A stretch of 64,000 nucleotides of DNA from an uncultured delta proteobacterium. Lineage in GTDB: Bacteria > Myxococcota_A > Polyangia > Fen-1088. Position numbers and translations under genes: made by a program. Shown one piece after another: positions 4,802-51,834 of the stretch. The stretch covers positions 780,553 to 844,552 of the forward strand of contig CAWCMR010000008.1 of the NCBI GenBank assembly GCA_963796685.1, written 5' to 3'. Each line of letters opens with the position of its first letter. Within the stretch, counting starts at the first letter, position 1. The notes beneath the pieces were generated by a model. That model was not told the DNA's origin and ran no database searches. It worked only from the letters and a program-made list of their open reading frames with translations.

Positions 4802-5088
4802 TCTGGACCCCATCCGCCCGAGACTGCCTCGACGAGATCCTGCAGCACATCGCGGCTGATTCGCCAGCCGCCGCTGCGAAAGTTCTGGAGGTCGTCCTCG
4901 CAGCGGTGGAATCACTCTCCGTGTTTTCGGAGCGCGGTAGGATCGTACCTGAGGTCGGGAACCGGTCAATTCGGGAGATCTTCGTCTACCGATTTCGACT
5001 CTTGTATCAAGTCTCGTCCAGCGACGTTCGCATACTCGCGGTTCTGCACGGAGCAATGGACTTTGATCGGTGGCTGCGGCACACGTAG
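4777..5088 (+). CDS. Type II toxin, RelE/ParE family
   Basis: VVWTPSARDCLDEI...GRIVPE...REIFVYRFRLLY...ILAVLHGA, the ParE/RelE pattern. Confidence 0.85.
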   Translation: MDSGKRAVVWTPSARDCLDEILQHIAADSPAAAAKVLEVVLAAVESLSVFSERGRIVPEVGNRSIREIFVYRFRLLYQVSSSDVRILAVLHGAMDFDRWLRHT

Positions 5089-5136
5089 CGCTGCCATAAG
5101 GCCGTTGCAGCTGGGAATCCCACTGCAGAGAAATCA

Positions 5137-5622
5137 CTACCGGCCAATTCCGAGCATCCCGCTGAGCCAGCGCGTGGCGCGGGCGCGAAAGCCCGAGCCG
5201 TGGCCGCGGTTGATGTGGCGGATGATCGTCCGTTCATCCAGGAAGAACGTCGTGGGCAAACGATCCTCACCGAAGGCGCGCGCGAGAGCGCCGCTCCCGT
5301 CCAACGCGACCGTGGCTTGCGCGGGCAAGGGATGGCTGACGAGGAATTCCTTCAACTCAGGCGCATCCCCCTCCTCGGCCACGATCATCAGGGCGAAGCT
5401 CGGATTGAGCTTTTCCCGGAGGGCCAGGATCTCGGCCAGTCCTTCCTTGCACGGCTCGCACCAACTGGCAAAGAAGTCCACCACCGTCACGTGCCCTCGC
5501 AAATCGTCGTTGCTTACGCTTGCTCGTGTCAGGGTTTCTGCCTCGAAGGACGGGACCGGCGCGCCGACCTGCGGCCGGGCTGCATCGGCCAGGAGCAACG
5601 GTAAGAGCAAGAGGGAGATCAT
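5137..5622 (-). CDS. TlpA-family thiol-disulfide reductase
   Basis: Signal peptide, VVDFFASWCEPC active site, LPTTFFLD. Confidence 0.85.
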   Translation of the reverse strand: MISLLLLPLLLADAARPQVGAPVPSFEAETLTRASVSNDDLRGHVTVVDFFASWCEPCKEGLAEILALREKLNPSFALMIVAEEGDAPELKEFLVSHPLPAQATVALDGSGALARAFGEDRLPTTFFLDERTIIRHINRGHGSGFRARATRWLSGMLGIGR

Positions 5623-42495: not shown

Positions 42496-43695
42496 CTACC
42501 CCGAGCCTTCGCAAAGCAGCGCTGCCAGGGCTCGCATGACGTGGCCGAAGGCGATGCGTTCTTGCTCCAGCCGCACACGCGCGCCCAGTCGGTCGAATCG
42601 AAGATCCTCGTAGACGCCTTCCTCGTCCGGGGTGAGATGCGGTAGAGGCTTGTCGTACCGATCCGGCTCCGCCACCCACAACGCCCGATGGCCGAGCAGA
42701 GTCTCGCGGTCCATCAGGAAGGAACGCACATCAGGGAAGATCGCGCGCAGGCTATCCAGGATGGCAAACCCGTGCGTGTCGAGGTCACCCCAATAGAAGA
42801 TGGCTTTGTCTTGCAACCAGGGAACGAGCCTCAATCGGTCGACGCCGTAGCCGAGACCGAAAATAATGATGCCGGCCTCGACCTCGGGGAAAGCCAGGCC
42901 GTTGATCTCGTTCTCCGTGATGAACACCCTGCGGACGGGCAGATCGAGTCGGGCGACCTGCGCGACCGGAGCCGTGATGTCGTCGAGACCGTGAATGCGC
43001 AGCCGGTCGTCGAGAACGCGAAAGCGCAACTGGGCCGGCTTGCCGAGAAGACCGTAGCGTTGGTCGAAGGCCTGGCCGCCCACGGCCAGGCGGTCGACGG
43101 CCTCCACGGGCAAGACGAGGTCGAGCAGCTCGACCAGCAGCCGATGGTGGGTCTCGATGAACTTCGTGTGCACGCCGGCGACATCGATCTGGCGGGCGTA
43201 GACGCCTGGGCGCGGGTGGTTGCGGAACCATGTCACCACGTTCAGAATGCGTTCCCAATCCCCGGCGGTTTCGAGCAAGTCGAGCGGCCGACGGGCGATC
43301 CATGGCACCAGCTCGGAGTGCGCGTCCCGGGTTGCCTGGACCAGCCGATCGAACAGTTCCGCCTGGCGGCGTTTTCCGAGCATCGCCAGCGCATCCTCTT
43401 CGCTCGGCACGACGACAGACCGGGGCACGCGGTTCACACCGAGTTGGCGGTGATTGACTTCGGCATAGACGACTTCGTAGCCCGTGCCTACGCAGCTCTT
43501 GCTGCCTTCCTCCAGAGTGCGAATCCAGGTCCGCGCTTCCACGAATCGGTCGGACAGATCCCGCACCTGTGGCCGCTTCATACGCACGGCATAGGGGAAC
43601 AGCGGTGCGCCGCCAAGCCGCGCCCCGAGAATGAGGCCCCGATCCCACAGGCGCTGGACCTGCGCGCGAACATCGTCGGGGGTAGTCCAAGCCAT
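42496..43695 (-). CDS. jetD: Wadjet JetD TOPRIM nuclease (DUF3322 plus DUF2220)
   Basis: MAWTTPDD..., RQIDVAGVHTKFIE, FITENEIN, YWGDLDTHG, RLEQERI; downstream of jetC. Confidence 0.93.
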   Translation of the reverse strand: MAWTTPDDVRAQVQRLWDRGLILGARLGGAPLFPYAVRMKRPQVRDLSDRFVEARTWIRTLEEGSKSCVGTGYEVVYAEVNHRQLGVNRVPRSVVVPSEEDALAMLGKRRQAELFDRLVQATRDAHSELVPWIARRPLDLLETAGDWERILNVVTWFRNHPRPGVYARQIDVAGVHTKFIETHHRLLVELLDLVLPVEAVDRLAVGGQAFDQRYGLLGKPAQLRFRVLDDRLRIHGLDDITAPVAQVARLDLPVRRVFITENEINGLAFPEVEAGIIIFGLGYGVDRLRLVPWLQDKAIFYWGDLDTHGFAILDSLRAIFPDVRSFLMDRETLLGHRALWVAEPDRYDKPLPHLTPDEEGVYEDLRFDRLGARVRLEQERIAFGHVMRALAALLCEGSG

Positions 43696-43702
43696 GGCAC
43701 GC

Positions 43703-46700
43703 CTACGATGCTCGGGCCGCGCGCTCTTTCCGGTATTCTTCGATGGTGAGATTGCGCAGCATGGACGAGCGACCATCGTCGGTGTGGACGAAGCCAACGC
43801 CGGCCACGTGGGGTTCGATGATGTGGATCTTCTGCAGGGGGGTGACGATGAGGAGCTGCAGGTTCATGCGAGCGAAAAGCTCGAGCGCGTAGCGGGCCGA
43901 CTCATCGGAGCCGCGCCCGAAGGCCTCGTCGATGGCCACGAAACGAAACGAGCGCGAACGTTTCACGCCGCGTTCCAGGCCGAACTGGTAGGCCAGGCTG
44001 GCCGCCAGCACCGTGTATGCCAGCTTCTCCTTCTGCCCGCCCGACTTGCCGCCCGAGTCGGTGTAGTGCTCGTGCTCGCGATCGTCCTCGCGCCACCTCT
44101 CCGAAGCCGAGAAGGTGAACCAGTTGCGCACGTCGGTGACCCTGCGGGTCCAGCGCCGGTCGGCGTCGGTCGAGCCTTCCCGACCGCGAAAGCGCTCGAT
44201 GAGGCTCCTGACTTGCAAGAACTTGGCCTCGGAGTAGACGGCATCCTCGGAGCCGGTAAGAGCGCCTTCGGTGCAGACGCGCAGGTCCTGCTGGAAATCG
44301 CGGATGTCGGCATCTTGCGACGCGACGATTTCCAGCGCGATGTAGCGATTCGGGTTGTAGTCGATGTCACGCAGGGATCGGTTGATGGCCACGATGCGCT
44401 CGCGGATGGTTTGCCGTTCGCGGTGCAGCTGCGACTGGAAATTGGCCACCTCGCGAATGGCGTTTTCGTTCAGCAGCTCCTTGAACTTGGCCTCGAAGCG
44501 GGGCAAGTCGTCTTGGGTGAGACGCGCCAGCATCGAGCCGAGCTCGCCCAAGGCGTCGACACGCGCATCGATCTCCTGCGTCTCGACCGGGTAGTCCTTG
44601 CGATAGGCCTCCATGGCCTTGACGATCTTTTCTTCCAGGCGCCGCAGACGCTGATCGCGCGCATCGATCTCTTTCTGCAACCAATCGCGCAAGTCCTTCT
44701 CGCGGCCATCGCACGACTCGACGGTCAGCATGTGCGGACCCAGAGCCTCGTCGCGCATCTCGTCCAGGCGGGCAAAATCGCGGGTCTTCACCTCGGCCGT
44801 CGTGGCATCGAGCAACGCCTGGCACGCCTGACGCAAGGAGGTGGCTTGCTCCTGCTTGAGGCGCGTGGTGGCGAGCTCGCGATTGTCTTCGTCCTGCTCC
44901 GCCTCGGTCGCGCGCATGCGCTCTTCGAGCGTAGCCAATTGTTCTTCGAGCGCGCGCAAGACATCCGAGGCCGCCTCCAGTTGGCGACGTTCGCCATCCA
45001 AGCGCTCGATCTCGACCGACAGCGGCTTCCAGTCGATTTCGCGAAAGTCCTCGAACACCGACAGTTGGTGCAAGTGCGCGAGCCGCTCGCCGAGCGCACC
45101 CTGCTCGTCCTGCAATCCGGCCAGACGGGCAGCGATGGCCTGCATACGCGCCTCCAGCATTTCGCGTTCCGCATCGAAGGCGGCGATCTTGGCTTCGTTC
45201 GACCAACCGAGCACGTAGCGTGATTTGTCGTCCAGGCGATGGCGATCGTCTTTCTCGTGACGACCGCCGCTGGCCTTGATTTGGCCGTTCCTGGTGATGG
45301 CCTGCTTTTCGCGTCGAAACTGTTCCAAGCTGTCGCAACAGACGTGGTCGAATCGGCGCGCGATCTCCGATTCCAGCCAGACATAGAACGCCGAGTCCGG
45401 CTTGATGACCAGCTTGTGCAGCACCGCTGCCGGCGAGCTCGCAACCGCGGTGGCGCGTTGGCTGACCACGCGAAAGTAGACCAATCGCTCGCCGAGGTGC
45501 GTGCCGTCCACCCACGCGGCCACGCGCGCGTAGTCCCGGTCCGGCACCAGCAGCGACAAGCCGAAGTTGTGCAGCAGGCGCTCGACGGCGCCTTCCCAGG
45601 CCCGCTCCTCCGGGCGCACCTGGATGAGCTCGCCGACAAAGGGCAAGTCCTCGTCCCGCAGGTCGAGCGCCCGGCAAAGCGCGGCGCGGATTTCGAGCAT
45701 GCGCGAGGGAATGTTCGACCGACGCGCGTGCAGCGACGCCAGCTCGCGCGAAATCTCGCCGTGCTGATCCTTGAGGCCGCGGAGCTCGACCGAGACCTCG
45801 GTCACTGCATTTTGTGCCCGGCCCTGCCGCGCCTTCGAGACCTCCACATCCTCGGCAAGCGCCCGACGGTTGGCCTGGAATGCGTCGCCATCGCCGGGCA
45901 GGCGCAACCCCGAGGCCGCCGCCAGGTGAGCGTACTGGTCGGCATGGCGCGAGCGCGCGTCCCTCTCGGTGCGTTTCCGCGCGATGTCCGTCTTGATGCG
46001 CTCGATGCGGTCGCCGCCGTTCTCGGCGATGGCCCGTTTCAGCTCATCGCGCGAGGTCTGCTGGTTGCGCCGCTTCTCGACGCCTTCGGCGATGCGCGCT
46101 TCCAGCTTCGCCAGCTCGACCTGCAGGTTGCCAAGGCGCTTGTCCAGCAACACCGCCTTGTGCTGGGCAAAGTAGGCATGCAAGGCACCGCGACAGTTGC
46201 GCAGAGACTCGGCTTCGCCCGAGAGCCGTCCGTGTTCGCACCCGTCCTCGACGATGGGCGAAAGACGCGCGATCTGCGCCTTGGCTTTGAGCACCGCCTC
46301 GTGGGCACGGTTGAGGTCGTCGAAGTGATGCACCAGCGCCTCGATGCGTTCGTCGACGGGAAACGCCTCCAGCATGTGCTGGCGGACGAAGTCGGTCAGG
46401 TTGCCCACCGACTTCATCGATACGGTCTGGTGAAACAGGTCGAGCGCCTGGTCGTTCTCGATGCCGAAGCGGCGACGAAACGCCGCCGCGTAAGGCGGGA
46501 ACGAATCGAAGATCTCGGTCTTGGCCAGCCGGCGCAAACGCTTGCGCAAATCGCCGATGTCCTGCCCGAAATTGGAGAAGTGCTCGGCGATCGAGAGCGT
46601 CCCGTCCGACAGCACGAAGAGCCGCGCCGGCTGTCCCTCCACGTCCTTGAGCCAGAACACCTGCGCCAGCGTCACCGTCTGCTCATAGCCTTGGTTGTGA

Positions 46701-47077
46701 AAGCGCGCGACCAGCACGGAGTAGCTGTTTCCGTCGCGCAACGACACCGGCCGCGCCGAAAGGCCGAGGTCGTTGCGTTCGGTCTTGTAGTGGCCAAGCA
46801 CATACGAGCGCAAGGTGCGCTCGCGCACCTCGGCCCCGGCGGCCTTGTTGTACGCGATCCTCTGCGGCGGCACGAGCAAGGTGGTGATGGCGTCGACCAG
46901 CGTCGACTTGCCCGAGCCGATATCCCCGGTGAGGAGGACATTGTCCCCACCCGGCGCCAACGTCCAGATCCGCTGGTTGAAGGTGCCCCAGTTGTAGATC
47001 TCCAGGCGGTACAGGCGAAAGCCCGTGTGCTCGTCGGAAACGGCGAAATCGAGCGCGCCCTGCCCGGCTTCGCTCAT
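43703..47077 (-). CDS. jetC: Wadjet JetC SMC-like ATPase
   Basis: NWGTF, Walker A GDIGSGKS, long coiled coils, signature SGGKSGGQKE, Walker B FVAIDEAF. Confidence 0.95.
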   Translation of the reverse strand: MSEAGQGALDFAVSDEHTGFRLYRLEIYNWGTFNQRIWTLAPGGDNVLLTGDIGSGKSTLVDAITTLLVPPQRIAYNKAAGAEVRERTLRSYVLGHYKTERNDLGLSARPVSLRDGNSYSVLVARFHNQGYEQTVTLAQVFWLKDVEGQPARLFVLSDGTLSIAEHFSNFGQDIGDLRKRLRRLAKTEIFDSFPPYAAAFRRRFGIENDQALDLFHQTVSMKSVGNLTDFVRQHMLEAFPVDERIEALVHHFDDLNRAHEAVLKAKAQIARLSPIVEDGCEHGRLSGEAESLRNCRGALHAYFAQHKAVLLDKRLGNLQVELAKLEARIAEGVEKRRNQQTSRDELKRAIAENGGDRIERIKTDIARKRTERDARSRHADQYAHLAAASGLRLPGDGDAFQANRRALAEDVEVSKARQGRAQNAVTEVSVELRGLKDQHGEISRELASLHARRSNIPSRMLEIRAALCRALDLRDEDLPFVGELIQVRPEERAWEGAVERLLHNFGLSLLVPDRDYARVAAWVDGTHLGERLVYFRVVSQRATAVASSPAAVLHKLVIKPDSAFYVWLESEIARRFDHVCCDSLEQFRREKQAITRNGQIKASGGRHEKDDRHRLDDKSRYVLGWSNEAKIAAFDAEREMLEARMQAIAARLAGLQDEQGALGERLAHLHQLSVFEDFREIDWKPLSVEIERLDGERRQLEAASDVLRALEEQLATLEERMRATEAEQDEDNRELATTRLKQEQATSLRQACQALLDATTAEVKTRDFARLDEMRDEALGPHMLTVESCDGREKDLRDWLQKEIDARDQRLRRLEEKIVKAMEAYRKDYPVETQEIDARVDALGELGSMLARLTQDDLPRFEAKFKELLNENAIREVANFQSQLHRERQTIRERIVAINRSLRDIDYNPNRYIALEIVASQDADIRDFQQDLRVCTEGALTGSEDAVYSEAKFLQVRSLIERFRGREGSTDADRRWTRRVTDVRNWFTFSASERWREDDREHEHYTDSGGKSGGQKEKLAYTVLAASLAYQFGLERGVKRSRSFRFVAIDEAFGRGSDESARYALELFARMNLQLLIVTPLQKIHIIEPHVAGVGFVHTDDGRSSMLRNLTIEEYRKERAARAS

Positions 47078-47721
47078 GATTCCCCGTCTTTTTCGCCTGC
47101 CGACTCGTTCTTCCAATGCTCGGCGTAGGCCGCGAGCCGCCGATCGAATTCCGATAGCCACTGGGCATCCACGAAGGCCTTGAGAATGCGCTGGATCTCG
47201 AGCTCGCCGTCATTGCCGTCATTGCCGCCTTTGCCGCCTTTGCCGCGCAACCGGCGCAGAAATCCCATCTCGACCGCCTTGTTGATGTGCGCATCCAAGC
47301 GATCCGTCAGGCGCGCTTCGTTGCCGCTGTCGGGAAGAAAGACCCGCACCAAATCGGCGATCTGCTCGCGACTCAGGATGATGCGGGTGCCGTCGCCCTG
47401 CGCATCCGATTCGGCGAGCTTCTTTCGCAACAGCACCAGCAGCAAGCTTACCTGGAAACCGAGCGGCCGGCGCGGCACCAGGCGCGGCAGCTCGGGCTCC
47501 CCCTCGCCGACCGCCCGCTGGCGAAGGTACGCATAGCCCTCGGCCTCGTCGACGATCAGCTCGAGCCCGAGCGGCGCCACGTGATCGCGCACCCGCGCCT
47601 GCAGATCGAGCAACGCCTGCCAATTCTTGGGCTCGTCCTCCGCGTGGAGCACGCCCCTCATCAGCGACACGAGCACCAGCGAGAAGGCATTCGACGCCTC
47701 CTTGGGCTGCGTGTCGGTCAT
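47074..47721 (-). CDS. jetB: Wadjet JetB (DUF4194)
   Basis: LGLELIVDEAEGYAYLRQ, LPRLVPRRPL, EIQRILKAFVDAQWL; overlaps the jetC start. Confidence 0.92.
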   Translation of the reverse strand: MTDTQPKEASNAFSLVLVSLMRGVLHAEDEPKNWQALLDLQARVRDHVAPLGLELIVDEAEGYAYLRQRAVGEGEPELPRLVPRRPLGFQVSLLLVLLRKKLAESDAQGDGTRIILSREQIADLVRVFLPDSGNEARLTDRLDAHINKAVEMGFLRRLRGKGGKGGNDGNDGELEIQRILKAFVDAQWLSEFDRRLAAYAEHWKNESAGEKDGES

Positions 47722-48872
47722 GGTGGTGCGTGCCTCGAGGACATGTTCGGTGCCGTGCGGGGACTTACTCCATCGGAATCGAAGGGGGCGGCTCGCCAGA
47801 GCACCATCACAAAATCCTCGCCAAACCTCCAGTCAAGCAGAGCCCGATCAGGCGCGGACACATTCGCGTATAGGCGGTGCTCCTCGATGGGGTGGTTCGA
47901 ATCGGCGGACAGCCCCAGGAACGAGAGCCCCTTCTTGAACGGGAAATGCTCTCTCTGCTCTGGCGTCAGGCGCAGCAGTGCGGCGATGCGCGGCCGCGCC
48001 GACGTGTGTTCTCGGGTGTCAGCCCACTCGGCGATGACCTCGTCGGGGATGTAGTTCTCGATCGCCCTCTTGGTTAGAACGACGTGCGGTATGCCGAGAC
48101 GTTCGCACGTCTCGCGAATCTCGTTGGCCATCTTCGAGATGTCGCCCGGGAAACGACTATCGTTGTCGGTGAACACGACTGCGCGAAATGGGACGTCGGC
48201 AGCTTCGCTCTTCTCGTGTTCGTGCTTCACGAGCTTTTTCAACTCCCCGCTACCACCCACACTGTCGTACTTGAGAGCCTGGTCCCGAAGCTGTTTGAGG
48301 CGCAACAGCTCCGGATCGCCGAGGACGGCCAAGACCGCATCCAGGAAAGCCCCATCAGTGTTCCGATTCTCCATCAAAACCACCAACGGTTTCTGCAAGA
48401 GCTGGACGGCTTTCTCGGGACTCAGGGAAACCGGCCTCTCCTGCTTCCCCACCAGAGACACCACCGTAGTCTCTGACGCGTCTACGGTCGCGGACAAGTC
48501 CAGAACTCCCAGCCGATCATGGCTAGCTTTGAAATCGAAGGCCACCGAGCCGTGAGGAGCGCCGCCATGTATTAGATCTCGAAGCGTCCGTCCAAACGAA
48601 ACCCCATCAACCTCCAGCGGAAAGCCACCCGGAGTAGTCAGAGAGGAGGATCCGATAGAACCCTGAGGCCCGATCGCACCCTGCGGGCCGGCGAAAGGCA
48701 TTCCTGCACGCGGCGCACGGGAGGAGAGGGAGCGAAGGAGCAGTCGGGGTAGCCGAAGCAAGGCGGACTTGCCGCTGTTGTTTCGGCCGATGAAGAGCGT
48801 GAGAGGGCACACGTCGATGGTTACCGGCGACTTGAACGGCTTGTAATTGGTACAGCCAAATCGACGAAGCAT
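47718..48872 (-). CDS. Fusion of an N-terminal ABC/AAA ATPase fragment and an OLD-like TOPRIM domain
   Basis: NYKPF...LTLFIGRNNSGKS (Walker A); no Walker B or signature seen; then VVLMENRNTD, GGSG, VFTDND, KRAIENY. Confidence 0.7.
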   Translation of the reverse strand: MLRRFGCTNYKPFKSPVTIDVCPLTLFIGRNNSGKSALLRLPRLLLRSLSSRAPRAGMPFAGPQGAIGPQGSIGSSSLTTPGGFPLEVDGVSFGRTLRDLIHGGAPHGSVAFDFKASHDRLGVLDLSATVDASETTVVSLVGKQERPVSLSPEKAVQLLQKPLVVLMENRNTDGAFLDAVLAVLGDPELLRLKQLRDQALKYDSVGGSGELKKLVKHEHEKSEAADVPFRAVVFTDNDSRFPGDISKMANEIRETCERLGIPHVVLTKRAIENYIPDEVIAEWADTREHTSARPRIAALLRLTPEQREHFPFKKGLSFLGLSADSNHPIEEHRLYANVSAPDRALLDWRFGEDFVMVLWRAAPFDSDGVSPRTAPNMSSRHAPP

Positions 48873-48994
48873 ATGTGTCTCCTCGCTTCCTCGGAAGGAT
48901 AGTTCTTACCACGCAGTGCCACTTCCGTGGAGCAGGTTCTTCCGCTTCCGGAGGGACGTCCTGGGCGCCCCTGGCCGGGGAAACGATGCAATGC

Positions 48995-49156
48995 TTACCT
49001 GCAATACACCACCAGCGGCACCGTGGCCTGGCGCCGGAGGCCGGTGGCGTCGGTCCAGGCGATGACCTGCTTGTGCTCGTCGTCGATGAGCGCATGGCTA
49101 TCGTCGGCGGCCAGGCTCAGGTAGGCCACGATCTCGGCCATGCCGCGTTCGAGCGG
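48995..49156 (-). pseudogene. Orphan diverged duplicate of the jetA 3' end
   Basis: Encodes PLERGMAEIVAYLSLAADDSHALIDDEHKQVIAWTDATGLRRQATVPLVVYCR*, near-identical to the JetA C-terminus (49907-50068). Confidence 0.9.
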
Positions 49157-49193
49157 CGCGCACCTTATCTTCGAGAGAGCATCGGTTGTCGGG

Positions 49194-49219
49194 ACACCTC
49201 CGAATGTGTATAGTGGTGT
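49194..49219 (+). promoter_or_regulatory. Candidate vapBC promoter/operator
   Basis: -10-like TATAGT (49209-49214) 7 bp before the ATG, inside the inverted repeat acacc...ggtgt. Confidence 0.4.
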
Positions 49220-49221
49220 GT

Positions 49222-49443
49222 ATGGCGACTGCAGCGCGGTCAACCCGCACCAACATCCTACTCGACGAGGATCTGATCTCCGAGGCGACTCGCCTGACGG
49301 GCATCTCCACCCGACGCGGCCTTGTCCACGAAGCCCTGCGCGCACTCATCGCGCAGAGACGCCGACGACCGCTGTCCGAGCTTAGGGGCAAGATCGAGTT
49401 TGTACCAGGCTACGACTACAAGGCGGCACGGTCTGCTCGCTGA
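49222..49443 (+). CDS. vapB: VapB-type antitoxin
   Basis: RTNILLDEDLISEA...LVHEALRALI...LRGKI RHH pattern; overlaps the PIN gene. Confidence 0.88.
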   Translation: MATAARSTRTNILLDEDLISEATRLTGISTRRGLVHEALRALIAQRRRRPLSELRGKIEFVPGYDYKAARSAR

Positions 49444-49862
49444 TGATCCTGGTCGACACCTCGGTTCTGATCGATTTCCTACGCGGAAAGAATACCCCCG
49501 CCGTCGCATTCCTCGCCCGCCTAGAGGCGGACGATGTGCCGTTCGCGATTCCCCTCGTGTGCTGCCAAGAGGTCATGCAGGGCGCGCGTGACGAAAAGGA
49601 ATGGCGGCTGTTGCGTGAGCATCTGTCTTCGCAGCAACTCGCCGTGCCGGTGGATCCCGCGGCGCTACATTGGGAAGCAGCCCGCATCTTCTTCGACTGC
49701 CGCCGTCGCGGGCTCACCGTACGAAGCAGCGTGGATTGCCTCATCGCTGCCCATGCCATCGAGGCCGAGGCCACTCTTCTCCACAACGACGAAGACTTCG
49801 AGCGCATCAAGAGAGTACGGAAAGGGTTGCGAACGGAGATGGGTGCCGACCCAAAGCGGTGA
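49443..49862 (+). CDS. vapC: VapC PIN-domain toxin
   Basis: MILVDTSVLIDF, QEVMQG, SSVDCLIAA, LHNDEDF. Confidence 0.92.
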   Translation: MILVDTSVLIDFLRGKNTPAVAFLARLEADDVPFAIPLVCCQEVMQGARDEKEWRLLREHLSSQQLAVPVDPAALHWEAARIFFDCRRRGLTVRSSVDCLIAAHAIEAEATLLHNDEDFERIKRVRKGLRTEMGADPKR

Positions 49863-49906
49863 TCTCGACGAGGGACCGAGATTCGTCGAACATTGCTATT
49901 CTGCGC

Positions 49907-51343
49907 TCACCTGCAATACACCACCAGCGGTACCGTCGCCCGACGCTCGCAACCGGTGGCGTCGGTCCAGGCGATGGTCTGCTTGTGCTCGTCGTCGATG
50001 AGGGCGCGGCTGTCGTCGGCGGCCAGGCTCAGGTAGGCAACGATCTCGGCCAAGCCACGTTCGAGCGGACGTGTCTCGACGATCTCGGCCAGGGAAATCT
50101 GCGGCCGGGTCTGCAAGGCACGACGGATGTGCGCGGCCAATTCCGTCTTGTCGACGTAGATCTGTTCATAAAGCATGTCGGTGGGAATGTCGCCCGCACC
50201 TTCGACCAGAATCTGGTCGGCGATGGTCGGCTTCCAGGGCGGCGAAAACAGCGGACGCTCCATGGGCAGATCGACGGTGGGCCCCGGCTCATCGAGCTCG
50301 ATGAAGGTGCCGGGGGGAGGCCGATCGCGCATCGCCAGCGCGCCTTGCTCGATGGCGCGGATGGTCTGCATGATCTGCCGATTCTCCAACCACACCTTGT
50401 CATCGAGGTAGCGGCGTAGTTGCTCCGACAGACGCGCCACGGTCCGCTGCGCGACCTCGCCGGCTTCCAACCAGTCGTAGTGCACGCGCAGAAGGCGCGT
50501 GCTCGGCTCCAGCTTCTGCACCGCCGCAAGCGCGAAGACCGACTCGAGCAGCGAGGACAGCTCCTCCTGCCGGACCGGCGACATCAGGAAATCCCAGAAC
50601 GCGCGAAAGCTGCGGCCTTGGTCCGAATCGCTGATGGCGTCGCGCTCGCCGAAGATCTCGTCGAGCAGGGCACCCTTGCTGCCGTCCCAGGTCGCGATCT
50701 TTTCCCGCACCGCACGGTCGAGGTCGCGAAAGCTCTGCTCGAGCTCGCGAAAATCCGCCAGCAAGGCATACGCGGTGTCCGACATCTGCGCGAAACGATC
50801 GCGCACCTGGGCCGCATCCATCAAGTCGACGCGGCCTTCGCGCACGCGCGCAAGCTCGGCGGCAATCTCGGCCTGGCGCTTTTCCAGCTCGGCGATGCGC
50901 GCCTTGGGATCGACCTCGGTGCCCTGCACGATCTGGCGCAGGAGCTCGAACACCGTGATGAGGCGCGACTCGGTGCCGACGAATTGGCGTTGCTGCAAGC
51001 CGGCCAGCCAGGCCAGGGCCTTTTCCGTCGCGGGCGTCAGATCGAAGTGCGGCTCGTCGCTGTCCGGTGGGTAGTACTTGCGCAGCCAGCCCCGCCCGTC
51101 CGCCGCCCACTCGTCGAGATACTCGCCCGCGGCGCGCGGGAACGCGCCCTCTCCCAGCCGCTCGCGCAGGTGGAAAAGGTAGTCGTCGAGCTTCGCGACC
51201 AACTCTTGCCGCGCGAGGGTCCGCACATTGGGCTCGACGAAGCTGCGGTATAGAAAGCTCGCCACGAGCGGCGCGCTGTCCGCCATCAGCAGGCGCCAAG
51301 CCGGGTGCCGCTTACGAAGAGCCTCGAGGGTCTGGAAATCCAT
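49907..51343 (-). CDS. jetA: Wadjet JetA (DUF3375)
   Basis: HPAWRLL...APL, GWLRKYY, FVGTESRL, SDQGRSFRAFWDFL, SEQLRRYLDD, GLAEIVAYL. Confidence 0.93.
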   Translation of the reverse strand: MDFQTLEALRKRHPAWRLLMADSAPLVASFLYRSFVEPNVRTLARQELVAKLDDYLFHLRERLGEGAFPRAAGEYLDEWAADGRGWLRKYYPPDSDEPHFDLTPATEKALAWLAGLQQRQFVGTESRLITVFELLRQIVQGTEVDPKARIAELEKRQAEIAAELARVREGRVDLMDAAQVRDRFAQMSDTAYALLADFRELEQSFRDLDRAVREKIATWDGSKGALLDEIFGERDAISDSDQGRSFRAFWDFLMSPVRQEELSSLLESVFALAAVQKLEPSTRLLRVHYDWLEAGEVAQRTVARLSEQLRRYLDDKVWLENRQIMQTIRAIEQGALAMRDRPPPGTFIELDEPGPTVDLPMERPLFSPPWKPTIADQILVEGAGDIPTDMLYEQIYVDKTELAAHIRRALQTRPQISLAEIVETRPLERGLAEIVAYLSLAADDSRALIDDEHKQTIAWTDATGCERRATVPLVVYCR

Positions 51344-51535
51344 TGCCTAGCTCGGCAAATTCGGCCGCTGACTCAAGATTTCGAACGCCTCGCCGTCAGG
51401 CACGGACAGACCTGCGGCCAACGTGGATTCGAACATGGCTTTTTCTATCATGCTCGAAACGGAATCGGTGCCGGCCAGAGAGACAACGATTCGCCATGAG
51501 TCTGCTCCACTACGCGGGGCGAGGTGTTTCAGGTC

Positions 51536-51651
51536 AGTTGCCCACCGGTGGTCCGACCCACGTCGCATGAAACTGGCAGTGCAGTTTCGTCCTAGTTGCC
51601 CACCGGTGGTCCAACCCACGTCGCGTGAAACTGGCAGTGCAGTTTCGTCCT
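51536..51651. repeat. 58-bp tandem duplication
   Basis: agttgcccaccggtggtcc(g/a)acccacgtcgc(a/g)tgaaactggcagtgcagtttcgtcct x2 with 2 mismatches; each unit contains the hairpin gaaactg-gcagtg-cagtttc. Confidence 0.92.
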
Positions 51652-51664
51652 AATGTTCCCATTA

Positions 51665-51741
51665 CCCGCGTTGGCGGAGGCCGGCTTCGCCGGCCGTAGC
51701 CATAGCGCGGGAGGGTTTGGGAACCCTCCCAGGGTTCCCAT
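51665..51741 (-). repeat. Dispersed repeat family A, copy 2
   Basis: Reverse complement atgggaaccctgggagggttcccaaaccctcccgcgctatggctacggccggcgaagccggcctccgccaacgcg. Confidence 0.8.
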
Positions 51742-51750
51742 TACAATGAG

Positions 51751-51834
51751 TGCGGTCGGGGAGACTCGAACTCCCACAGCCGTAAAGCCACCAGAACCTG
51801 AATCTGGCGCGTCTACCAGTTCCGCCACGACCGC
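51751..51834 (-). tRNA. tRNA-Leu(CAG)
   Basis: GCGGTCGTGGCGGAACTGGTAGACGCGCCAGATTCAGGTTCTGGTGGCTTTACGGCTGTGGGAGTTCGAGTCTCCCCGACCGCA; long variable arm; CCA not encoded. Confidence 0.96.

Follow-up and report, generated by a model that had tools for sequence, protein, structure and literature searches.

Displaced jetA 3′ ends and embedded cargo between jetA and jetB in type I Wadjet operons

Why should the end of a defense gene be present twice, on either side of a toxin-antitoxin pair? The question is raised by a Wadjet operon in the genome of an uncultured delta proteobacterium (GenBank assembly GCA_963796685.1, contig CAWCMR010000008.1), analyzed here within a stretch of 64,000 nt that we call the window and to which all positions refer unless another locus is named. 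In the window, jetA is followed by the convergent genes vapC and vapB and then by a second copy of its own 3′ end that lacks the jetA body; we refer to this copy as the orphan tail, and to the one that belongs to the full gene as the attached tail. We lean, with moderate confidence, toward the view that the orphan tail is the functionless leftover of a small vapBC cassette that was inserted a few bases behind the jetA stop codon by a recombinase-free, homology-anchored process. The interval from the jetA stop codon to jetB is a permissive landing pad for cargo, and this slot, with the footprints preserved in it, is a more interesting result than the orphan tail.

The two tails form a direct repeat of 164 nt (48993-49156 and 49905-50068) with 88% identity, no gaps and a spacing of 912 nt, the sole direct-repeat family found at the locus by repeat search; the pair was also recovered when the region was compared with itself by BLASTN (E = 2e-56). 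Searched against the whole 7.3-Mb genome, the 162-nt coding segment gave two strong matches only (E = 7e-80 and 3e-54), the next having an E value of 0.007. Both copies lie on the minus strand, and each, translated in frame, gives the C-terminal 53 residues of JetA. The attached copy (49907..50068) ends in TGA, and the orphan copy (48995..49156), which ends in TAA, matches positions 422-473 only of the DUF3375 profile. An initial annotation made from the sequence alone had described 162-bp direct repeats encoding these residues, with many substitutions and no indels, and had concluded that this was not a fresh target-site duplication; repeat search and translation agree on each point, and the listed residue changes (SRALI/SHALI, QTIAW/QVIAW, GCERRAT/GLRRQAT) and the TGA/TAA exchange were matched exactly. 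The 19 substitutions comprise nine at third, six at second and four at first codon positions, and the changed codons are synonymous in eight cases and not in six. An analysis of synonymous divergence (dS) counted nine non-synonymous and nine synonymous differences and gave a dS of 0.27. The longest perfect runs shared by the copies are 26, 24, 24, and 22 nt. Six of the 53 residues differ, at positions that also vary between species, and the variant residues of the orphan occur in the attached tails of other species. The orphan has no stop codon and no indel within its frame. When relatives were compared, its homology to jetA could be followed about 14 nt further upstream, to approximately -176 from the end of the stop codon, the weak homology continuing to about position 49170.

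In the direction of the jet genes, the locus runs jetA, 44 nt, vapC and vapB on the opposite strand, the orphan tail, 122 nt, an open reading frame (ORF) of 384 aa, jetB, jetC, and jetD. All jet genes are on the minus strand and their A-B-C-D order is kept, although 2185 nt of cargo separate A from B. The 44-nt spacer between the jetA and vapC stop codons (49863..49906) begins, on the jetA side, with GCGCAG, and sequence comparison found the same six nucleotides after the attached tails of three relatives (G002, G010, and L172), again ahead of cargo. vapC (49443..49862, plus strand) encodes a 139-aa protein with a PIN domain (PF01850, E = 8.9e-15), whose translation shows acidic residues at about positions 5, 43, 98, and 116, candidates for those of the PIN active site. 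vapB (49222..49443, plus strand; VapB_antitoxin, PF09957, E = 4.6e-16) likely starts with the ATG at 49222, in an ORF that opens with a TTG at 49186, and the last nucleotide of its stop codon, 49443, is also the first of vapC. By domain content and gene order, the pair reads as a bona fide VapBC-type module, in agreement with its initial label. A sigma-70-like match (TTGTCG, 17 nt, TATAGT; 49186..49214, plus strand) lies just ahead of vapB; it is the only such match in 47500-51700 and, being a match to the consensus only, may represent the vapB promoter. The stretch that joins the cassette to the orphan tail (49157..49182) is unlike the corresponding junction of G010 and L172 by sequence comparison.

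The 384-aa ORF (47718..48872, minus strand) consists of the first 50 residues of the PDC-M55 A ATPase fused to positions 82-284 of the B protein (PADLOC PDC-M55A, E = 2.4e-14, residues 2-50; PDC-M55B, E = 7.3e-33, residues 150-361), Pfam AAA_15 being matched on residues 3-47 only. With A positions 3-51 of 421 and B positions 82-284 of 315 represented, it falls short of a complete PDC-M55. It had no homologue at E <= 1e-5 in the 88 other genomes of the family, and its stop codon overlaps the jetB start (ATGA). We read it as the probable remnant of a second, foreign cargo, a two-gene PDC-M55 defense candidate. The GC content at third codon positions, which is 72.9% in vapC, 71.6% in vapB, and 70.6% in the PDC-M55 remnant as against 77-85% in the jet genes, makes the cargo look foreign. 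In a Thiotrichaceae locus (L115, 9311-9463), an ATPase gene starts 66 nt after jetA, the contig ending soon after; its first 51 residues are 33% identical to the N-terminus of the remnant (E = 4e-6).

Is the arrangement peculiar to the window? Multiple jetA tails separated by different cargo, which the initial annotation had expected to exist elsewhere and on which its reading depended, were indeed found: three in G010, two each in L172, L112, and L107, and additional ones on contigs from peat. The order in G010 is jetA, the first 14 codons of vapC with vapB, tail 2, 2.8 kb of cargo, tail 3, the native 84-nt spacer, and jetB. Its VapB protein is 94% identical to that of the window, tail 2 carries internal indels, and tail 3 comprises the last 23 codons of jetA. 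The second cargo includes a 452-aa ORF with a weak PifA-like match, and on both sides of it the repeat comprises not only the tail but also the 10 nt that follow the stop codon. L172, a metagenome contig with a 94% identical JetA, has jetA, an intact vapBC (96-98% nucleotide identity to the window; vapC, 96.6%), 21 nt, and an orphan of 267 nt with an in-frame TAG, whose homology to jetA is traceable to about -285; the cargo that follows is homologous to the second cargo of G010. Peat contigs from four runs of four studies are laid out like L172 but have an additional third tail, 144 nt long and located 117 nt ahead of jetB. In a single low-depth contig of 418 nt (n = 1), an orphan-like tail is joined to the jetB leader without the PDC-M55 remnant. 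On the contigs X2 and X3, the two orphan tails are identical to the attached tail of the window (0 differences over 267 and 144 nt). We considered this identity as proof of recent exchange and rejected it, as contig building may thread in the variant of a co-occurring strain; L172, assembled independently and with that layout, is 90% identical there.

Two-tail loci occur in other phyla as well. A Methylococcaceae genome (L112) has the architecture of the window, with jetA, a convergent PIN gene with a partner, and an orphan of 56 codons with an in-frame stop. In an Accumulibacter genome (L107), a Phd-PIN pair lies behind jetA and an orphan of 49 codons 4.8 kb further on; there, cobalamin and housekeeping genes come after jetA and the orphan tail, no jetB lies within 10 kb (L107, 11444-21443), and the operon appears to be broken or rearranged. 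The PIN proteins beside the orphans of the window, L112, and L107 are unrelated to one another (BLASTP, E > 0.2). The vapBC homologues in G018, G020, and on contig 14 of G004 have no jetA tail nearby; the last of these (L035, approximately 4827-5307) is a partial vapBC with 89% nucleotide identity to window positions 49376-49887 and an apparent frameshift in vapC.

A JetA tail was present in 17 of 89 genomes of the window's family, and more than one only in the window genome and G010. A class-wide census with PF11855 scored three candidates per genome and missed the orphans of G010, and is not usable as a census. Among 22 cargo-bearing loci, a second tail was found in five (the window, G010, L172, L112, and L107), which represent three lineages. 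The orphan boundaries lie at about -69 and -176 in G010, at -144 and -267 in the peat contigs, at -267 to -285 in L172, at about -174 in L112, and at about -200 in L107. Decay is apparent in the in-frame stops of L172 and L112 and in the indels of G010 tail 2. The topology is that of a displacement array, in which a full gene is followed by 3′ fragments without the 5′ part, each ahead of different genes. The types of cargo are unrelated to the sequence of the tail, and no variable functional tip is matched to the gene downstream. The suggestion in the initial annotation that the cargo array is keyed on the jetA tail is not supported, since 17 of the 22 cargo-bearing loci have no tail copy; the slot therefore collects cargo without tails.

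How the slot is used is best seen against its empty state. In L171, whose JetA is 92% identical, an 87-nt spacer separates jetA from jetB, and the spacer of G072 measures about 88 nt. Within the genus, the gap between the jetA stop codon and the start of jetB measures about 222 nt in G004, about 760 nt in G007, where it holds a DUF6036 nucleotidyltransferase gene, about 946 nt in G002, where it holds hicA, and 3.4 kb in G010. The slot of G001 reaches 7.3 kb and contains PIN, DUF1847, and unknown ORFs, as well as an internal direct repeat of about 790 nt with 84% identity (L033, 6033-6818 and 6963-7751 of the reversed locus). A sister genus has, in three of its species, a slot filled by a gene for an 879-aa SNF2-family helicase (L167, 7311-9950, in G086; L168 in G089; L166 in G098) with 94-96% nucleotide identity among them and best PADLOC matches to ZorD and DpdE. 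These loci could be a conserved five-gene variant of Wadjet. jetA was matched in two frames in L126/L168 (G089) and L127 (G091), which suggests that it is frameshifted, and possibly inactive, in these two genomes.

In 15 of 18 loci of the clade, jetB is preceded at about 45 nt by a motif (TTGCCT, 17 nt, TAGATT), found for example at approximately 6495-6530 in L171 and 7275-7310 in L030 (G010). It is present in every cargo-bearing relative, and the loci without it are L180, G045, and the window, where the corresponding place is 47722-47800. Since it is conserved in an otherwise diverged spacer, we read it as probably a separate promoter for jetBCD, and the evidence points to separate transcription of jetA and jetBCD in this clade. 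With a promoter-like element of its own ahead of jetB, DNA inserted before that element would break no gene, in either orientation. In the window, the 3′ end of the PDC-M55 remnant has replaced the motif, and jetBCD would therefore be transcribed from further upstream.

The same slot is occupied in distant bacteria. We compared 80 distant JetA loci on genome contigs (53-76% identity) and 80 on metagenome contigs. Among the 73 genome loci with jetB in reach, 61 have gaps of 100 nt or less, two of 116-139 nt, and 10 of more than 200 nt; the ten large gaps range from 243 nt to 7.3 kb, and one is that of G001. Of 66 metagenome loci with jetB in reach, 62 have gaps of up to 100 nt and four exceed it. 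L172, L178, L227, and L250 carry cargo, and no jetB was detected by tblastn in their 2.3-6.4 kb of downstream sequence, a short blastn match to jetB being found about 1.35 kb downstream in L178; the remaining 10 have too little downstream sequence to judge. The cargo includes parts of toxin-antitoxin systems (PIN with Phd or other antitoxins, ParE, MazE, and HepT with MNT), Uma2 nucleases (PADLOC PDC-S03), a GT4-conflict/STAND pair, EcoO109I with a C5 methylase, and the SNF2 helicase. Uma2 genes occupy the slot on unrelated proteobacterial contigs (L061, 1714-2307; L092, 11712-12305; L072, 11502-11909; L227, 3964-4491). Diverse defense-like genes are thus recurrently nested between jetA and jetB. 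A Pfam scan of cargo ORFs, including those of the 6.4-7.3 kb inserts, revealed no domain of an integrase, recombinase, or transposase; the scanned ORFs had been filtered by length and nesting, so that a small or broken gene could be missed.

What process would leave behind an intact gene, a cassette, and a second, truncated end of the same gene? The direct duplication, the range of boundaries from -69 to -285, the lack of a recombinase, microhomology at a junction, and the foreign cargo together argue for homology-anchored insertion followed by decay, the microhomology being documented so far only for the later trimming deletion described below. The cassette would have entered without a dedicated recombinase, with one side anchored by homology in the jetA 3′ end and the other joined without homology or by microhomology. 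In terms of topology, the easiest route would be a circularized molecule consisting of a jetA 3′ end and vapBC that integrates by a single crossover, or an equivalent double-strand event, giving an intact jetA, the cargo, and a second, truncated jetA end; the circular intermediate is one that we infer. Repetition of such insertions would stack units, which would explain the three tails of G010 and of the peat contigs, and tail copies would subsequently decay or be overwritten by recombination with other strains. Homology-facilitated illegitimate recombination was put forward, in the part of the study that deals with such loci, for displaced effector-immunity arrays of type VI secretion systems (T6SS) and for rhs orphans (Kirchberger et al., 2017; PMC5361080), and this mechanism agrees with our reading. 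Once in place, it is plausible that the toxin-antitoxin pair would stabilize the insert against excision. Since vapC is reduced to 14 codons in G010, any such stabilization is not permanent, and G010 shows the usual route of escape from addiction, by loss of the toxin first.

The junctions of the relatives bear on the history of the insertion. Beyond vapB, the cassette ends in the same way in G010 and L172. In L172, the hexamer TCGTCG occurs both at the cassette end and at a distance of about 178 nt from the orphan's end; removal of the 104 nt between the two copies yields the G010 junction, and the next 19 nt match at 16 positions. The window orphan and G010 tail 2 have derived bases in common at the junction. 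These observations suggest that vapBC entered once, in an ancestor of the window, G010, and L172, that no less than 267-285 nt of jetA were duplicated in the process, and that the orphan lost part of its length later. The original duplicate would still be seen in L172, and would have been trimmed to about 176 nt in the lineage of G010 and the window.

Later recombination between strains is indicated by the divergence of the cassette itself. Between the window and L172, dS is 0.40 in jetA (95.5 of 310 synonymous sites), as opposed to 0.084 in vapC and 0.05 in vapB (together 11 of 163; Fisher p = 3e-10). Among the species with the vapBC insertion, dS of jetA is 0.32-0.40, and the last 267 nt of jetA, with 91% identity between the window and L172, have diverged like the rest of the gene. 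Given that dS of vapBC is far below that of jetA, the cassette was exchanged between strains after the divergence of jetA. No recombination breakpoint was found within jetA, along which the window, G010, and G002 remain about 90% identical throughout. In a tree of 22 tails, in which 10 of 19 inner branches are unsupported and which is suggestive only, the attached copy of the window is nearest to the L172 orphan, and the window orphan groups with the attached tails of G002, G010, and L171; the terminal branch of the window orphan is 0.15, that of its attached copy 0.042. The proposal in the initial annotation that one tail was imported from another allele is therefore only partly borne out by these data: the orphan reads as a working allele and is not, in this weakly supported tree, the sister of its own attached copy, but a dS of 0.27 between the copies would fit age alone.

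It is possible, though we think it rather improbable, that the jetA 3′ end acts as a portable homology arm: a cassette with a copy on either side could loop out as a unit of tail and cargo and re-enter any related Wadjet operon by the general recombination of the host alone. Other Wadjet systems restrict circular plasmid DNA; here, the genes alone were read. In a bolder form of the proposal, the ends that start recombination would come from Wadjet itself, as it cuts small DNA circles. If the portable-arm reading is true, type I Wadjet would collect genes much as an integron does, but with no integrase, and toxin-antitoxin or defense cassettes would be self-spreading passengers of an anti-plasmid system. 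Chromosomal integron cassette arrays are stabilized by toxin-antitoxin cassettes. Like the jetA slot, they stack small cassettes, many of them toxin-antitoxin pairs, with new units pushing older ones along, and toxin-antitoxin cassettes could counter-select deletions between repeats in both. The slot differs from integrons in that it has no IntI and no attC, its repeat is a piece of a coding gene, and it holds at most three units.

Several observations weigh against homology-anchored insertion, or against the slot as we describe it. Classical strand replacement yields deletions, not duplications, and it is for this reason that we favor the circular or double-strand variant, which must itself be inferred. 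No circle or donor intermediate was observed in public sequencing runs, whose contigs are all those of relatives (no run contained more than 0.21 of the sampled words) and none of which covers window positions 47750-49000. All orphan boundaries fall within the last 285 nt of the 1437-nt jetA and may reflect an unrecognized site preference; their position in the last fifth of the gene can also be explained by proximity of the anchor and loss of long, unstable repeats. The 17 cargo loci without a tail copy, in which matches to the tail are at chance level (11-19 nt), point to a possible other route. The window and L172 diverge abruptly at 49183, inside the cassette edge, and the recent exchange of vapBC therefore need not have used the tails. 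The divergence of the attached and orphan copies fits an old duplication in place equally well. As for the slot, the window itself lacks the conserved motif ahead of jetB, and a simple promoter scan flagged that motif in neither of the two relatives scanned (L171 and L030), as it agrees with the sigma-70 consensus at 8 of 12 positions and falls below the scan threshold.

The main rival is an old duplication in place, which we regard as unlikely but worth serious consideration: the jetA 3′ end and the first spacer bases would have been duplicated in tandem by slippage at microhomology, vapBC being captured at or with the joint, with divergence and occasional gene conversion thereafter. The dS of the window's two copies is near the jetA values of the species that carry the insertion, and the junctions of vapBC with the tail in G010 and L172 trace to one event. 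The repetition in G010 of 10 nt past the stop codon on both sides of the second cargo is as expected of a duplicated target, and X2 and X3, whose orphan tails match the window's attached tail perfectly over 144 nt, would present a perfect repeat around cargo, except that their identity comes from short-read contigs and may be an effect of assembly. Against duplication in place, the tail tree mixes attached and orphan copies, with weak support; two rare events would be needed at one place; and vertical descent is insufficient to explain why, between the window and L172, the synonymous divergence of vapBC is five to eight times lower than that of jetA.

Could the orphan instead be retained for a function, either as an expressed C-terminal mini-protein of JetA or as an element that regulates or insulates the downstream genes? 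We consider this improbable. It is true that the window orphan keeps 54 codons free of stops and indels, that an L-to-M change creates an in-frame ATG at codon 6, and that boundaries in three lineages lie near the start of a conserved RPLExGLAE block. The orphans of L172 and L112 are nevertheless interrupted by in-frame stops and G010 tail 2 by indels, the promoter scan of 47500-51700 found no promoter-like match on the orphan strand, and the sole long ORF that contains the orphan runs antisense through vapB. The non-synonymous differences from the attached copy, as numerous as the synonymous ones (nine of each), and the long branch of the orphan also speak against a maintained protein.

It is slightly less probable still that the tails were left by islands of a site-specific integrase with an attachment site in the jetA 3′ end, each bringing a replacement end, the small cassettes being deletion derivatives mobilized in trans. 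Elements of this kind are the islands that target tRNA genes, and e14 and phage 21 in icd, which use an integrase and a fixed attachment core and give the target gene back its 3′ end. Such elements share with the jetA locus an intact target gene, an insert, and a displaced, diverged 3′ copy, their tandem accretion is known, and all boundaries seen here are indeed confined to the last 285 nt of jetA. The jetA locus differs in having no fixed boundary, the ends varying from -69 to -285 between events, and no integrase, recombinase, or transposase domain was found in the scanned cargo ORFs, even in the inserts of 6.4-7.3 kb. Furthermore, no common core is visible beyond the conservation of the jetA coding sequence, and the majority of cargo-bearing loci (17 of 22) lack any repeat. 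Least probable of all is a collapse of two strains with different jetA ends into one contig, which the status of the genome as metagenome-assembled (88.6% complete, 6.5% contamination) and the failure of any public run to reproduce the window's exact arrangement might suggest, since repeated tails occur in the same order in G010, L172, and contigs of four runs from four studies, and the longest exact run between the copies (26 nt) is too short to mislead the usual assemblers.

The operon that accommodates the vapBC cassette is, by domains, order, and strand, apparently a bona fide type I Wadjet JetABCD. jetA (49907..51343, minus strand) encodes the kleisin-like subunit at its full length of 478 aa (DUF3375, E = 8.5e-159, residues 9-475; PADLOC JetA1, E = 5.7e-220, residues 1-478). 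Residues 8-319 align with the solved JetA chains 8dk1, 8q72, and 8as8, and as the alignment is confined to these residues, the tail could not be placed on the structures by sequence. jetB (47074..47721, minus strand; 215 aa) matches DUF4194/MksE (E = 1.9e-46) and PADLOC JetB1 (E = 3.6e-84). jetC, the gene for an SMC-like ABC ATPase with Walker A and B regions (ORF 43703..47161, minus strand), matches PADLOC JetC1 (E = 0) and Pfam AAA_29 and SbcC_Walker_B; as the PADLOC match sets in at residue 37, translation probably starts further inside this ORF. jetD, the gene for the nuclease subunit (ORF 42496..43797, minus strand), matches DUF3322, JetD_C, and PADLOC JetD1 (E = 1.9e-147), with family matches beginning at residues 34-40. 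jetA has a tRNA-Leu (CAG) gene on its own strand some 400 nt upstream (51750-51834), and a 58-nt tandem repeat (two copies, 97% identity; 51536-51651) is located between the two; the operon may sit in an island beside the tRNA gene.

The closest parallels are the displacement or orphan arrays of rhs, cdiA, and T6SS effector-immunity genes, as treated in the relevant part of Kirchberger et al. (2017; PMC5361080), who cite Jackson et al. (2009) and Koskiniemi et al. (2014). As at the jetA locus, these arrays are described there as a full gene followed by 5′-less 3′ fragments, each with its own downstream gene or genes, with newer units beside the full gene and older ones pushed downstream without a recombinase, and one-sided homology with an illegitimate join has been proposed for them. 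They differ in that the displaced piece is a variable toxin tip and the cargo its immunity gene; at the jetA locus, what is repeated encodes the conserved end of a structural subunit, and the cargo consists of unrelated toxin-antitoxin and defense genes. The analogy with rhs and cdi loci drawn in the initial annotation thus applies to the topology and not to the swapping of tips: with six of 53 residues differing, at positions that vary between species, the tail is conserved and nothing suggests that tip swapping matters. The orphan tail is most likely a decaying by-product, the copy of a conserved handle rather than a swappable functional tip.

The cargo itself is reminiscent of "guilt by embedding", in which defense or toxin-like genes are nested in Hma, BREX, DISARM, and type I restriction-modification systems (Payne et al., 2024; 10.1101/2024.01.29.577857). 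In both cases, extra genes are nested between the core genes of a defense operon, and two of the slot's cargo families, PDC-M55 and PDC-S03, are PDC ("candidate") models of PADLOC. According to the main text of that preprint, PDCs are candidates found by embedding, and no PDC-M family is named there; its four mentions of Wadjet concern ATPase folds and not embedding, and duplicated gene ends and the origin of embedding are not discussed in it. It also gives a co-orientation of 96.7%, from which the convergent vapBC of the window departs. We found no description in the literature of cargo between jetA and jetB or of duplicated jetA ends, the supplements of the preprint, which may list Wadjet-embedded genes, lying outside the search.

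If our reading is true, Wadjet joins the defense systems with embedded passengers, and has a precise slot for them that extends from the jetA stop codon to the promoter-like element of jetB. The slot could then be mined for new defense or toxin-antitoxin genes, such as those of the SNF2 helicase and the Uma2-type nucleases, and the separate transcription of jetA and jetBCD would matter for expressing or annotating these operons. The duplicated gene ends, in turn, would be rare footprints of embedding, which point to recombinase-free, homology-anchored insertion as the way in which passengers enter.

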